DNA of 22,709 nucleotides, taken from UHGV virus genome UHGV-2199615, one strand, 5' to 3'. The notes beneath the pieces were generated by a model. The model did not search any database and was not told the DNA's origin. It saw only the letters and a list, made by a program, of their open reading frames with translations. Positions 2,002 to 6,532 of the stretch are shown piece after piece; position 1 is the stretch's first letter, and each line of letters starts with the position of its first letter. Made by a program: the position numbers and the translations under genes. The stretch is from a virus.

Positions 2002-2115
2002 GTTACCCTCCACGCAAACAACTCTTTTCGAATACAAAAGATAGCAAAGTGAGTATATCTAGTCAAAATTTTTTTGCATACACTTTGCTATCAAATTGAA
2101 TACCAAAGGTGTTAT
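2002..2115. promoter_or_regulatory. Divergent immI promoter/operator region (Pant-like leftward, Pmnt-like rightward)
   Basis: 114-bp AT-rich spacer between divergent arc-like and mnt-like genes. Perfect 12-bp inverted repeat gatagcaaagtg (2040-2051) and cactttgctatc (2081-2092), 29 bp apart. Confidence 0.5.
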
Positions 2116-2364
2116 ATGGCAAAGGGTGTGTCAATTTCTCCAACTACGGTAAGAATCCCTGAATCTTTACGCGAGGCTCTTGCTGTCAGAGCATCAAAAA
2201 ATGGTCGCTCTGTTAACTCCGAGATCGTCATGATTTTGCAAGCCGCGATTGATGAAGATAGGTCGCCAAAGTCAGTTGAGTCATTTGCTCAGCAAGAAGC
2301 TGATAAATTCAAAGAGGCGCTACTTGAGACGCTAAAGACCATGTATGCTAAGGATGAAAAATAA
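2116..2364 (+). CDS. mnt: Mnt-like ribbon-helix-helix repressor
   Basis: ORF 2074..2364; start chosen at internal Met (MAKGVSISPTTVRIPESLREALAVRASKNGRSVNSEIVMILQAAI...TLKTMYAKDEK, 82 aa). Resembles P22 Mnt (83 aa) in the N-terminal RHH and C-terminal helix, and is divergent from arc-ant. Confidence 0.7.
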   Translation: MAKGVSISPTTVRIPESLREALAVRASKNGRSVNSEIVMILQAAIDEDRSPKSVESFAQQEADKFKEALLETLKTMYAKDEK

Positions 2365-2900
2365 TGCTGCACACAATTCATTTCTTATGCCCTGTTAACA
2401 CTGCCACTGTTGGGCAACTTCAGAACCACTGTCTCACCGCATTATCTCAAGGCGCAACTGAATTAAATATCCATATATCAAGTCAGGGAGGGGAAACTGC
2501 TGCTGGCTTTACTGCGTATAACTTTCTTAAGTCACTCCCTGTTACCGTTAGAACTCACAACATAAGCAATGTTGAATCCATAGCTAATATCGTTTTCCTG
2601 GCTGGCTCAGAACGTTTCGCAAACCCATTATCAAGATTCCTGTTACATCCTCTATTATGGTGCTTTGCCTCCCCAGCCGCCGACCATGCCAGATTGAGAG
2701 AGTACGGGAAATGCCTCGATAACGATCTTGATCGCTTCGTTGAGACGTTCAATATCGACATCGGAACCCATATTAGGTGGGCATCCCTGATAGCAGACTC
2801 GACCATTTTGGATGCTAACAAGGCTCTTGAGCATGGCATAATTAATTCCATAAAAACTGCAAGGCTGGCATCCAATCAGGCAAACTGGTGGGTTGTTTGA
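2364..2900 (+). CDS. ClpP/S14-fold (Clp-protease-like) protein of unknown role, translationally coupled to mnt
   Basis: ATG at 2364 overlaps the mnt TAA (taATG). 178 aa with HISSQGGETAAGFTAYNFL and NVESIANIVFLAGSERFANPLSRFLLHP, which align by eye with the ClpP motifs NSPGG..AG..IYD and GQAASMGAFLLTAGAKGKR...SRVMIHQP. Candidate Ser, His and Asp positions are present. Confidence 0.6.
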   Translation: MLHTIHFLCPVNTATVGQLQNHCLTALSQGATELNIHISSQGGETAAGFTAYNFLKSLPVTVRTHNISNVESIANIVFLAGSERFANPLSRFLLHPLLWCFASPAADHARLREYGKCLDNDLDRFVETFNIDIGTHIRWASLIADSTILDANKALEHGIINSIKTARLASNQANWWVV

Positions 2901-2925
2901 TGGGTAAATCATGATTACTCCTTAT

Positions 2926-2950
2926 AAAAAACCCACCTGACGGTGGGTTT
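2926..2950 (-). terminator. Intrinsic terminator between convergent genes (strong on minus strand, weak on plus)
   Basis: Plus strand a6-cccacc-tgac-ggtggg-ttt. The minus-strand RNA gets a 6-bp GC stem followed by U6, immediately after the stop of the 149-aa ORF. Confidence 0.6.
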
Positions 2951-3398
2951 AGTCAAACATAGTGTTTCTAAAGTCTCTCGCATACCCTGCTAACACTCTC
3001 ATTCTATTATGATTGTTAGCAGACATGTGAGCTACAGGATGAAAAAGAGCAATCAATGAATACCTGTTCTCATCAAAAAGATTTTGTGCATAAACGAGAG
3101 CGGTATTGGATGTTTTATGCCACTGCAACTTTTGCGGTGTGCTGATATCTGTGCCATTTTTTATTGGCTCAAATTTATTTTCACCAATTGCTAAATGAAG
3201 GTGCATAAGGCCTGCATCTTCAATATCAGGAGGTCGATGATAAGAGGTGTCTCTGCCAAAATAGCTGGGCAACGTTCCCGTAGACTTGTAGATGATAAAA
3301 TCATCTACAAGTGTTTGTTTTAAATCAGGAAACTCAACAAAAACCGGGGAGAAAAAATAGTCAAAACTATCCTGATTATATTCCACGGTTACTTGCAT
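2949..3398 (-). CDS. Putative toxin, YafO-like (ribosome-dependent mRNA interferase family) by recalled motif similarity
   Basis: 149 aa; GAGG SD 7 nt upstream of ATG at 3398; starts 8 nt after the stop of the upstream 188-aa ORF. Segments DFIIYKSTGTLPSYFGRD, LMHLHLAIGEN and QKLQWHKTSNTALVYAQNLFDE resemble E. coli YafO as I recall it (FISYKRDGVLPDIFGRD, VAHIHLANENN, QLRQWSRTNDTAHLVYCQGAFDE). Confidence 0.6.
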   Translation of the reverse strand: MQVTVEYNQDSFDYFFSPVFVEFPDLKQTLVDDFIIYKSTGTLPSYFGRDTSYHRPPDIEDAGLMHLHLAIGENKFEPIKNGTDISTPQKLQWHKTSNTALVYAQNLFDENRYSLIALFHPVAHMSANNHNRMRVLAGYARDFRNTMFD

Positions 3399-3406
3399 GT
3401 TTTACC

Positions 3407-3973
3407 TCAGTGGAAGTTACCAGAGTGAAACACACGAGTCCCGTGCTCAGCAAGCGCACGCAAACCAGCCATATCTACGGAACTATCAAAAACAACCGGA
3501 ACACATGAGCGTTGTTTAATAAGACTATTCAGGTTGGTTACGGCAGATCTGGCATCAGCAACAACGATATAGATATCTCTTGCGATCTCTTTAAAATCAG
3601 CAGAAGCTTCTTTGAATACCGATTTCATTGCCCCTTCAAGTCCTCTCAATTGATGCTCTATCAATCGAGACTTTTCTGGTTCAATGATAGACAACACATT
3701 GTCTACATTCTCATCGGTAGCGTTTGCAAGAACACGATAAGCGTATTTCAGCATTCGAGACAATTCTTTAATCGAAGACACCGCCTCATGAAGCTCATCA
3801 TTAGCCCGTTCACTGCTGAATGAGGATTGATGGTAAGCGTGCTGAACGTTATCAGTAACAACCACCTCACAACTGAACGCAGAAGCTTGCTGTAATAGCA
3901 AACCTATTGCGACTCCAGCTTTGGCAGCGTTCAAGCTAAACATTTCATCAATCCCATTAGTCTCATTGCTCAT
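3407..3973 (-). CDS. Hypothetical protein (188 aa), first gene of a two-gene operon; candidate antitoxin or partner of the YafO-like protein
   Basis: ORF 3407..4003; start chosen at internal Met (MSNETNGIDEMF...) preceded by strong SD AAGGAGG. No motif I recognise, and no obvious RHH/HTH. Stop TGA lies 8 nt before the downstream ATG. Confidence 0.6.
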   Translation of the reverse strand: MSNETNGIDEMFSLNAAKAGVAIGLLLQQASAFSCEVVVTDNVQHAYHQSSFSSERANDELHEAVSSIKELSRMLKYAYRVLANATDENVDNVLSIIEPEKSRLIEHQLRGLEGAMKSVFKEASADFKEIARDIYIVVADARSAVTNLNSLIKQRSCVPVVFDSSVDMAGLRALAEHGTRVFHSGNFH

Positions 3974-4148
3974 ACAAACCTCCTTCTTATCGGAGATTAT
4001 CAATAGCTATGCATCCATTGAATACACGCTATGCGCAATAAGTTTACGTCACGTGATATCATTATGCAACCACCGTTCTATCACCGACTAACTTTACTCC
4101 CACTCCTATACATCATCTGGTATCCTGCGCAAAACTAAGGAGGTTGGT
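3974..4148. promoter_or_regulatory. Divergent promoter region between the 188-aa operon (minus) and the membrane-protein gene (plus)
   Basis: 175-bp AT-rich intergenic region; palindrome TCACGTGA at 4049-4056 is a possible operator; strong SDs on both flanks. Confidence 0.3.
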
Positions 4149-4499
4149 GTGAATGCTCAGTCTGTCATCATGGTTTTCCTTGGGCTGATTGTCGCAAAAC
4201 TATATCCAGACTGGTGGAAAGGGGCATTAGCTACTGTCGCCATCTATTTGCTTTTATCCATCGTTAAGCGATCACTCGCTGAGACCGTAAATCAAGCAAA
4301 ACGTTTCTCATTTAAGAGTTTAATAAACTATGTTACTGGGCTTATTTTTTGCCTTTCAATTCTGATCGCTTCGGCTTTTTTGCCCGTATCAATAGCTAAT
4401 TTTTTTGGCGCACCATATGAGGTAGGTTATCTATTCTCTGTTTCCTGTCTTGCCATTGCTCTTCTTTACCTGTGGACGAGATCAAAGAATAAAAATTAG
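4149..4499 (+). CDS. Small polytopic inner-membrane protein (116 aa); candidate superinfection-exclusion or lysogenic-conversion protein
   Basis: GTG start preceded by TAAGGAGG. Three to four hydrophobic helices (VIMVFLGLIVAKLY, ALATVAIYLLLSIV, LIFCLSILIASAFLPVSIANFF, LFSVSCLAIALLYLW). Convergent with the gp16-like gene, in the position occupied by sieA in P22. Confidence 0.55.
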   Translation: MNAQSVIMVFLGLIVAKLYPDWWKGALATVAIYLLLSIVKRSLAETVNQAKRFSFKSLINYVTGLIFCLSILIASAFLPVSIANFFGAPYEVGYLFSVSCLAIALLYLWTRSKNKN

Positions 4500-4516
4500 C
4501 CATCCGTGGCTGCCAG

Positions 4517-6532
4517 TTATTGAGCTTCTTTTTGTGATGCCTGTGCGACTCTGGTGAGCGATTGTGTGACCGTACTGATCGCTCTGTCATATGCTGTGCT
4601 ACCTTTTGGCGTATTTGCCAGACGTAACAAGGCATTTCGTATAACAGGGCTTTCGTATGCCTTCGCAGCTCCTCCTACGACACCAGCAGCAGGAACAACA
4701 AACGCAGCCGTTTTTAGCATCCCCGCTAATACTGCTGCGTTTATGATGCCACCACCAACTAACAATCCATAAAGCTGCTGACCATTTAAGTTTTGAACGT
4801 TCGCTTTTGCCGCGTGTCTTGTATCGTTGAGGTATTTAATAACGCCGTCCAGTTCCTTTCCATGTACGCCTTTAAAGAAAGTTGCTGATTGCTTCCTGTT
4901 CCGGTGTAACGCATTAATAAACTTTTCAACACTAATATTTCCAGACGGATCAGTCGCCTTATCTACAGCATTCTGAACTATGGCTGCTCGTGCGTTTTGC
5001 CTACCATTGTCATCCAGAAGCCTGTAAAGCTGAGAACGTTCTGATGGGTTTTGGCTAAAAACGAGTTTTGTTACATCCTCAGGTGTAGCCTTGCCGCTGG
5101 CTATTGCCTTTTGAACGCGCGTTCTTCTCATCATGTCATTGAATCTAGCCCATGAGCGATCAACCCTAGACATATTGGCAGCTTCTTCTGAGCCTAGTTT
5201 TTGGGATACTGCTTTTTTCATATCCGCTGTATATGCCTTGTAGACAATATCGCTGGCTTTCTGGAGCGTGTCTTTATCAACAGTCTCGTTTGAATTCATG
5301 AACCGCTTTCGAAGGTCAGTTCTGTTTTCTCTCGCCAGACGCAGGTCATTGGGTCCGCTGGTGATATCGTCTTTAAATTGCTGCAAGACTTTTACCGCGG
5401 CTCTATCCTGAGATTTGCCCGGGCGGCTTAACACGGCAATCTGATTGTCGATAGCTTTTACCGTGTTTGAGAGATCGACAGGGGTATCCCCCATAGCGTC
5501 AATTATGCGGTTATATCGCTTTCCTGCTGCCTCAATGAATTTTTGTTGCCCTTTAGTCGCAGATTCATAAAGCTGTTTATCAGAAATGCCACCCAGACCA
5601 TCGCTAAATGTTCTGACTAAATTTTCTCGTGCTTGTTGTTGATTCAGCCGATTCTTACCGGTTCCAAAAAAAGGAACTCTTTCGCCTAATGTCTGAGCCT
5701 GACTCTGCATAAAGGTTTTATCTTTCAGCGTGTCACTGGTCATTAACGGCAGGTTTCTTTCCGACGCAAAATCGACAGCAGCCTTTGCTTCCGGTGACAT
5801 CTCACCGCGAACAGCCCTGGAAACCGCACTAACTGTATTTTCCAGCCCCTTGCCAACACCACCAATGCCAGCAGAAATTACCGTTTGTGCAGGATCAATA
5901 TCTTCTCCGCCAGCAAGGCTGGTGCCACCCTGTAGTGCTAAATCTGTAGCAGCTGATTTCCCTATGGCACCAAGCACCGTTCCAGCCCTGCCCGCTGGTG
6001 TGAACGCTAACGCATTAGCAAGAAACGAAGTCAGGTCTTGCGGTGATAAACCTGGCTTGTTCAGGGCATAATCACCGGATGGCAGGGAAACGATAGTGTT
6101 ACCCTTCTCATCCTGCCTTAATTTCGCCCCCATACTCTGAAGAATCTTTTCCTGAGACGCGTCGGAGCCGAAAAGTTGAGACCATCCAGCCTTCAGGGCA
6201 TCCATGCTTAGTGAGTTCAACTCAGGGGCAGCCCCAACATTTTGCAGTCTCTCCATTTCTGGTGTCATTCGGCTTTCACCGGTAACGGCATCGCGCATTG
6301 CAGCACCTAAAACAGCCCCTTGCTCAGCAGAGCGATCTAGTCCTTCCTTCTGCTGAGTGGCAAGCTGTGCATATCCTGATGCAAGTGAGTTGTCTGCTGG
6401 CGATTGCTGAACACCTTGTTGTGTTGGCGCTGACTGACCAGCAAAATACTCATCAATGGCGGACCCAATATCTTCCGTGCTCGTACCATCAGGAAAGGTA
6501 AATGTCTTACCATTTGCAGTTACTTTCATCAT
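4517..6532 (-). CDS. Ejection (E) protein, P22 gp16-like
   Basis: 671-aa ORF, last of three consecutive ejection-protein genes (230, 483, 671 aa) matching the P22 order gp7-gp20-gp16; start overlaps the gp20-like stop (ATGA). Confidence 0.75.

Follow-up and report, generated by a model that had tools for sequence, protein, structure and literature searches.

Ribonuclease (RNase) toxin-antitoxin (TA) modules borne by phages and plasmids, among them RnlAB/LsoAB and ToxIN, act in abortive infection. On the chromosome of Escherichia coli K-12, yafNO is a proven TA locus, the toxin of which cleaves translated mRNA (PMC2814082). Here we describe a two-gene operon with a YafO-family toxin gene in the UHGV virus genome UHGV-2199615, of which a stretch of 22,709 nucleotides was analyzed (hereafter, the window; coordinates are window positions). 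The window corresponds to the region of late and accessory genes in a P22-like prophage, and its positions 2900-4150 are 100% identical to E. coli ATCC 11775, APEC O1, S88 and further strains. Both genes lie on the minus strand; the proximal gene (A) encodes a protein of 188 amino acids (aa), and the distal gene (B) a protein of 149 aa. Judging from sequence comparisons, A is probably the cognate neutralizer of B (we put the probability at about 0.6), the two genes forming a mobile cassette, carried as accessory cargo, of a YafO toxin and an antitoxin other than YafN.

YafO toxins on phages and plasmids are now annotated as orphan toxins next to a 'hypothetical protein'. A constant partner from a small, uncurated family, if shown, would establish a new family of antitoxins, and these orphan-toxin annotations could be corrected. 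The pair, a compact unit of two genes, would also be a candidate for a defence or addiction module that prophages bring to pathogenic lineages, and the signal-peptide-like N-terminus of the partner, if functional, would amount to an unusual form of toxin control. In RefSeq the toxin is named and A is a 'hypothetical protein', and 'YafM antitoxin' is the label given to the partner in PV340560, a phage record of GenBank; we found no study accompanying this label, nor any on the A-B pair. In a survey of Pseudomonas aeruginosa prophages, these YafO genes are recorded as partnerless toxins (PMC10449497). For E. coli, a survey of TA loci from 2023 reports a cluster YafO_toxin 70H in 44% of sequence type 95 (ST95) strains, and the only partner cluster given for it, 93P, is of unknown domain (PMC10790755); its lineage distribution suggests that 70H/93P is probably the A-B pair, which has thus probably been catalogued computationally already, although not characterized. 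A preliminary description of this locus, made from the sequence alone, had implied a novel pair. The pair is less novel than this suggests, given the named toxin, the antitoxin label and the probable entry in the 2023 survey.

Architecture and position of the operon

The features of the operon and of its products are as follows.

2922..2950, minus strand: intrinsic terminator, a hairpin at 2929-2950 followed by a U-run, shared back-to-back with a convergent ClpP-like gene
2949..3398, minus strand: gene B, 149 aa, YafO-family toxin homolog
3284..3312, no strand: perfect 13-bp palindrome with a 3-nt loop in the toxin gene (codons LVDD-F-IIYK), -16.2 kcal/mol
3399..3408, minus strand: 8-nt spacer (3399-3406) with a GAGG Shine-Dalgarno (SD) sequence inside the region, read from the sequence
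3407..3973, minus strand: gene A, 188 aa, uncurated family (PHROG 8416), putative antitoxin or other cognate partner of the YafO toxin
3410..3601, minus strand: codons 125-188 of gene A, last bundle helix (ARSA..LN.L..Q) and C-terminal tail, best conserved within the family and putative toxin-binding region
3869..3943, minus strand: codons 11-35 of gene A, hydrophobic signal-peptide-like segment MFSLNAAKAGVAIGLLLQQASAFSC after an acidic 10-residue extension, from a hydropathy comparison
3974..4148, minus strand: leader and promoter region of the operon, 175 bp, divergent from a membrane-protein gene
3979..3985, minus strand: SD sequence AAGGAGG of gene A, 5 nt ahead of the ATG at 3973, read from the sequence

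The longest open reading frame (ORF) of gene A reaches a TTG at 4003. The ATG at 3973 is the start chosen by the Prokaryotic Genome Annotation Pipeline (PGAP) and in the Salmonella orthologs, and it is supported by an SD sequence and a leader that are identical in the Salmonella loci L007 and L008. The SD sequence of gene B, GAGG at 3408-3405, is placed over the TGA stop codon of A, 6 nt ahead of the ATG of B, suggesting translational coupling between the two genes. A similar A-B spacing of 8-9 nt is found in HK639, D14L, YMC11/02/R656, pJN2-26 and Klebsiella plasmids. Downstream, the operon ends in a 9-bp G+C-rich hairpin, AAACCCACC/GGTGGGTTT, which overlaps the stop codon of B and is followed by a U-run on the minus strand (energy of -14.9 kcal/mol, z = -2.6); the consensus terminator scan missed this hairpin because the U-run was partly counted into the stem. 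Gene order, the 8-nt gap, the SD sequence over the stop codon and the private terminator together represent the classical type II layout. The sequence thus bears out the tight two-gene operon of the preliminary description, including the SD sequences of both genes and the terminator after the second one.

The leader at 3974-4148 is about 80% conserved relative to the orthologous Salmonella loci, but its minus strand contains no consensus-quality sigma-70 site; the aligned position in Salmonella reads, by eye, TTGACA-16-TATTAT, whereas its counterpart in the window is degenerate. No significant operator repeat was found upstream of A. Control by the immI repressors via an operator-like site at 4071-4082 was considered and rejected, since this match has three mismatches and such matches occur at chance frequency (24 found, 22.5 expected).

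The late operon of the prophage closes at its own terminator near 4498-4511, apart from the A-B operon. The exact position of sieA, on the opposite strand right after the gene-16 homolog, is held by a gene for a membrane protein of 110-116 aa (4149/4170-4499, plus strand), and the A-B operon is placed between this gene and the mnt/arc/ant immI region, where its P22 counterpart is a spacer of about 320 bp plus orf59a. The assignment of the operon to the sieA slot needs this small correction as to the exact position. Given its own signals, the terminators and the intervening opposite-strand gene, we regard the A-B operon as an autonomous unit in an accessory slot beside the place of sieA.

The distal gene encodes a YafO-family protein

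Protein B matches the Pfam family YafO_toxin (PF13957) with E = 3.4e-22 and 78.9 bits (gathering score, 25), its residues 37-145 aligning to profile positions 3-101 of 101, and the same domain is present in all paired homologs of B. Its similarity to K-12 YafO amounts to 38% identity over 120 residues (E = 7e-20) and includes the aligned motifs FGRD, H(L/I)HL, LVY.Q, DE, P..H and FR. By these sequence criteria B is a true YafO_toxin domain protein, and the family assignment, first made from recognized motifs, is confirmed by the hidden Markov model (HMM). Since B scores 79 bits against the NCBIfam YafO equivalog NF007377, below its cut-off of 153, and carries a conserved N-terminal extension of about 12-17 residues that is absent from K-12 YafO, we consider it a member of the YafO family and not a YafO ortholog. 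There is no YafO structure in the PDB. The AlphaFold2 model of B is poor, with a predicted local distance difference test score (pLDDT) of 53, and the top Foldseek matches of this model in the PDB, the RelE-superfamily toxins HigB2, RelE, YoeB/ParE and YafQ, are not significant (E = 0.36-5).

The toxin gene also contains the palindrome at 3284-3312, which resembles a terminator when read on the plus strand. Among the homologs, 8 bp of it are kept in Salmonella, a different strong hairpin occupies the same place in locus L009, and the others have none. A conserved RNA element was rejected as an explanation, because the palindrome is only partly conserved and the codon choice for LVD and IYK can explain it.

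Linkage and distribution of the gene pair

Using HMMs built from families A and B to confirm the loci (n = 30), we found a family-A gene directly upstream of the YafO gene in all 30, with a distance ranging from a 4-nt overlap to an 18-nt gap. These loci include all 16 INPHARED phage records with a YafO-like ORF and span Escherichia, Salmonella, Proteus, Klebsiella and Pseudomonas, four phage morphotypes and plasmids. No family-A gene without a toxin was found in the sample examined; as family A occurs there only with YafO-type toxins, it does not appear to be promiscuous. The A-B pair was found in the following elements.

P22-like prophages of E. coli and Salmonella: pair present
Lambdoid phage HK639: pair after the tape-measure gene
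Proteus myovirus-like prophages: pair present
P2-like element: pair adjoining an OLD-family nuclease
Metagenomic prophages: pair present
P. aeruginosa phages D14L and YMC11/02/R656: pair present
E. coli phage PhiR40_1: pair present
Klebsiella and E. coli phage-plasmids: pair present
Klebsiella IncFIB plasmids: pair between IS5 copies

The recurrence of the pair in the same slot of other P22-like prophages, which had been put forward as a check, is thus observed, and it extends to many unrelated phages and plasmids. The cassette adjoins the sieA position or the OLD nuclease, follows tape-measure genes, or is found at prophage ends near integrases; these are slots of morons, defence genes or accessory genes. 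Among 5426 complete E. coli genomes the full pair is present in 55, including the ST95 strains APEC O1 and S88, and a homolog of A was found on 43 Klebsiella plasmids. Its absence from most relatives of each phage type identifies the pair as accessory.

These data bear on two alternative explanations. First, the pair might serve the lytic programme of the phage itself and not defence or addiction, with B as an RNase for host shut-off or transcript processing and A as its timing inhibitor. Indeed, in HK639, the Proteus prophages and several metagenomic prophages the pair is embedded among co-oriented late or tail genes. In the window, however, the pair has its own leader and terminators, and both a terminator and a gene on the opposite strand stand between it and the late operon; elsewhere it resides near integrases at the ends of prophages and, flanked by IS5 copies, on IncFIB plasmids that are not phages. 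We regard a lytic role as highly improbable. Second, A and B might be independent cargo, A being an exported lysogenic-conversion or exclusion protein and B an orphan or attenuated YafO that is non-toxic or is held in check otherwise, e.g., by the host YafN. This would agree with the exportable appearance of A (see below), with the lack of a signal sequence in B, and with the partnerless listing of these YafO genes in P. aeruginosa prophages (PMC10449497). On the other hand, independent morons normally reshuffle, whereas the adjacency of A and B, with SD-over-stop coupling, is invariant in 30/30 loci; moreover, B retains all motifs common to active YafO, and cross-neutralization by YafN is unlikely because B is only 38% identical to K-12 YafO. 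Independent cargo is accordingly a very unlikely explanation.

Several observations concern single loci. On the Klebsiella IncFIB plasmid NZ_CP083052 (locus L023, 3592-7062), the cassette is flanked by two identical IS5-family transposase genes in a composite-transposon-like arrangement. A gene with a PF12869 domain (tRNA_anti-like, oligonucleotide/oligosaccharide-binding fold) stands just upstream of the cassette in the Proteus myovirus-like locus L005 (3893-4675) and in the P2-like locus L006 with the OLD nuclease (4130-4603), and is possibly co-travelling cargo. In an IMG/VR contig otherwise identical to the window (L026, 3610-4026), the toxin ORF is called as 138 aa with shifted start and end; this copy of the toxin gene may be frameshifted or inactivated.

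The partner protein represents a small uncurated family

Protein A belongs to no family in Pfam, NCBIfam or PADLOC and has no sequence relative in the PDB; it falls only in PHROG 8416/22162, both of unknown function. Its only match in PADLOC-DB 2.0, to a ZorA tail, is spurious (E = 0.004). No Pfam or NCBIfam match was obtained for 23 members of family A, and hence no known antitoxin family was recovered among them. A relationship to YafN was rejected (hhalign probability of 0.3%), as was membership in the CpxP/Spy (LTXXQ) periplasmic proteins, an idea prompted by a LIEHQ motif and one weak Pfam match. The profile, hhalign and PDB searches therefore agree with the earlier view that the 188-aa protein is not an antitoxin of the YafN/Phd, RelB, ribbon-helix-helix (RHH) or helix-turn-helix type, and they add that it has no curated family and no solved relative. 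The family is tiny, with 24 representative clusters at 50% identity among 1.84e9 proteins, and its members that precede the YafO toxins measure 180-190 aa. The locus shows no Rfam match at threshold and no tandem repeats that would point to an RNA antitoxin or a known small RNA.

The AlphaFold2 model of A alone has a pLDDT of 70 and comprises a confident helical bundle (residues 54-155) flanked by an N-terminal helix of moderate confidence (16-35) and by a C-terminal tail of low confidence (pLDDT below 55 when modelled alone). Fold searches with this model returned generic helical-bundle matches only, in keeping with the absence of a recognizable fold noted before. The conserved core of the family consists of the C-terminal 65-90 residues or so, and the tail motif, VFDSS.DM.GL..LAEHGT.VFHSGNFH in A, takes the family-wide form ES.ID...L..LA.HGT..F.S..FH. 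Protein A diverges faster than its toxin, with a mean pairwise identity of 22% for A versus 42% for B. The distance matrices of the two families are correlated (Mantel r = 0.78, 0/5000 permutations), and that of the A helix 125-155 tracks the toxin best (r = 0.80). At the sequence level, faster divergence of A together with correlated distances is the usual antitoxin/toxin pattern. Similarly, the conserved C-terminal core, the low-confidence tail and the swappable N-terminus match the organization of modular antitoxins.

The signal-peptide-like N-terminus of the partner

Most family-A proteins start with an n-h-c arrangement, i.e., a positive n-region, a hydrophobic core of 10-15 residues and a polar c-region. 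This arrangement, which had escaped the preliminary description, resembles a Sec signal peptide or signal anchor. The c-region often contains a proline followed by an AXA-type site, as in ...QPAALA|EAF, ...QPGAMA|ETF, ...CPAAMA|QEF and ...QPQAKA|AE. Sites of the Pro-x-x-A-x-A type occur in family members P0016, P0017, P0021 and P0028 and in loci L018 and L019, and the distant members show a textbook n-h-c structure. N-terminal hydropathy, measured as the 15-residue Kyte-Doolittle maximum, compares as follows.

Family A: median 1.63
18 other proteins of the window: median 0.51
8 textbook signal peptides: median 2.13

The A protein of the window is borderline at 1.47, below the lowest control signal peptide (1.61), and has an acidic 10-residue extension (net charge of -2) ahead of the conserved Met11. 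In the close subgroup, 16 of the 26 residues at 11-36 are invariant, compared with 77/188 over the whole protein. A phage-plasmid clade has a basic, disordered N-terminus in place of the signal-like segment and keeps the linkage to the toxin.

This N-terminus raises the alternative that A is membrane-targeted or exported and couples the toxin to inner-membrane or periplasmic events, which would make the pair an abortive-infection or exclusion module with non-classical control. As variants of this model, A could sense, or serve as an anchor for, the injection of phage DNA or a disturbance of the envelope, or else it could be an antitoxin rendered 'labile' by Sec-dependent removal and not by proteolysis. 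Such a model would fit the n-h-c structure of most family members with its AXA-type sites and intermediate median hydropathy, the lack of a detected DNA-binding domain in A, and the repeated location of the cassette next to ejection or tape-measure genes and the membrane gene at the sieA position, where injection-blocking morons occur. In the window, however, the borderline hydropathy and the acidic extension of A disfavour Sec export, and in the close subgroup segment 11-36 is better conserved than the remaining residues, which is atypical of a signal peptide. Furthermore, the phage-plasmid clade remains linked to the toxin without this segment, an N-in topology would leave almost no A in the cytoplasm for contact with B, and we found no precedent in the literature for membrane-bound or secreted antitoxins. 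A plain signal peptide is doubtful for the same reasons, namely the conservation of 11-36 and the clade without the segment, and also because an exported A could not restrain a cytoplasmic RNase. We consider the membrane-coupled model unlikely but retain it as the main rival because of the signal-like N-terminus. That family A is a genuinely export- or membrane-targeted neutralizer, which would tie the control of a cytoplasmic RNase to Sec export or to the state of the inner membrane, its pool being drained by secretion and not by proteolysis or its anchored form sensing phage genome injection, seems quite unlikely; such regulation would lack a described precedent.

Proposed function of the cassette

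Our preferred reading, A as the neutralizer of B, is drawn from strict synteny, translational coupling and the conservation pattern, and so is the possible role of A as an antitoxin or phage sensor. In the lysogen, A and B would be co-transcribed from their own promoter and translationally coupled, A taking the place of YafN, the Phd/YefM-type antitoxin of the chromosomal yafNO. By homology, B would act as a YafO-family endoribonuclease that cleaves mRNA and blocks translation. Protein A is proposed to bind and neutralize B chiefly with the conserved final helix of its bundle and with the C-terminal tail; the tail would fold on binding. The variable N-terminus might supply an accessory function. 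Upon loss of the element, or upon host shut-off or another perturbation by an infecting phage, A would be depleted or displaced, and the freed B would arrest translation. The outcome may be stabilization of the prophage or plasmid (addiction) or abortion of the infection. Both roles are suggested by where the cassette is found: in four phage types it occupies slots of morons and defence genes, and plasmids carry it as well; we propose defence and stabilization alike and favour neither.

A number of observations weigh against this reading. The signal-like N-terminus of most A proteins does not fit a plain cytoplasmic antitoxin, and were it a functional export signal, A would be removed from the cytoplasm, where YafO acts. 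No recognizable DNA-binding domain for autoregulation was detected in A with Pfam or NCBIfam. Apart from the spurious ZorA-tail match of A, neither A nor B matches a defence model of PADLOC-DB 2.0. The correlation between the A and B distances can be explained by co-inheritance alone, and the poor model of B leaves a RelE-like fold of this protein tentative. Finally, we found no published report of a phenotype for the A-B pair.

Neighbouring genes and sites

Convergent with the toxin operon is a gene pair at 2074-2900 (plus strand) that encodes a Mnt/Arc-like RHH protein of 96 aa (Pfam Arc, 1.4e-10) and, from the downstream gene, a ClpP-like serine protease of 178 aa (CLP_protease, 2.2e-11), the start codon of the downstream gene overlapping the stop codon of the RHH gene. 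This RHH-ClpP pair stands at the place of mnt and orf59a in P22 and could be another cargo module. In the divergent arc/mnt-like intergenic region, a perfect 12-bp inverted repeat, GATAGCAAAGTG, occurs at 2040-2051 and 2081-2092; the two copies are probably the immI operators of the phage, and they differ from O_arc and O_mnt of P22.

On the other side of the operon, the product of the gene at 4149/4170-4499 (plus strand) is a multi-pass membrane protein without a family match and without similarity to P22 SieA (BLASTP E = 0.29). The ribosome-binding region of this gene is conserved in Salmonella loci L007 and L008, where the ORFs behind it differ (297 and 140 aa). In the chromosome of ATCC 11775 (locus L001, 4190-6492), the IS21-family element ISEc12 (istA/istB) is found between the ant and tailspike genes of the prophage.

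Comparison with known systems

If the defence role holds, the cassette would share with RnlAB/LsoAB and ToxIN the principle of a translation-arresting RNase released on infection. It differs from them in that other protein families are involved, no RNA antitoxin was found for A-B, and no defence phenotype is known.

Prophage moron exclusion genes such as sieA of P22 resemble the cassette in their slot, bounded by ejection or tape-measure genes on one side and the next module on the other, in their autonomous and accessory character, and in a possible membrane-targeting N-terminus. HK97 gp15, located after the tape-measure gene, is another exclusion moron in the same kind of slot. There is no sequence similarity between these genes and the cassette, which consists of two genes including one for an RNase toxin.

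With YafN-YafO of K-12 (dinB-yafNOP), the cassette has in common the toxin family with its shared motifs and a partner gene located upstream at a very short spacer. In contrast, A is unrelated to YafN and Phd-YefM, is twice as long, and is predicted to form a helical bundle with no DNA-binding domain and with a signal-like N-terminus, whereas B has an extra conserved N-terminal segment and does not reach the cut-off of the NCBIfam equivalog. The A-B pair is also found on phages and plasmids and not in the SOS-regulated dinB operon.

In partner-swapped type II TA systems, as mapped by NetFlax and PanA/Panacea (PMC10440598), one toxin fold is combined with unrelated antitoxin domains. YafO is absent from the text of that paper (0 occurrences), and family A differs in being tiny and in occurring, in the sample examined, only with YafO-type toxins. 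Nevertheless, these systems and the cassette are alike in combining a known toxin family with an unrelated, previously unrecognized neutralizer, in the case of A a putative one, and in being mobile and often phage-associated.

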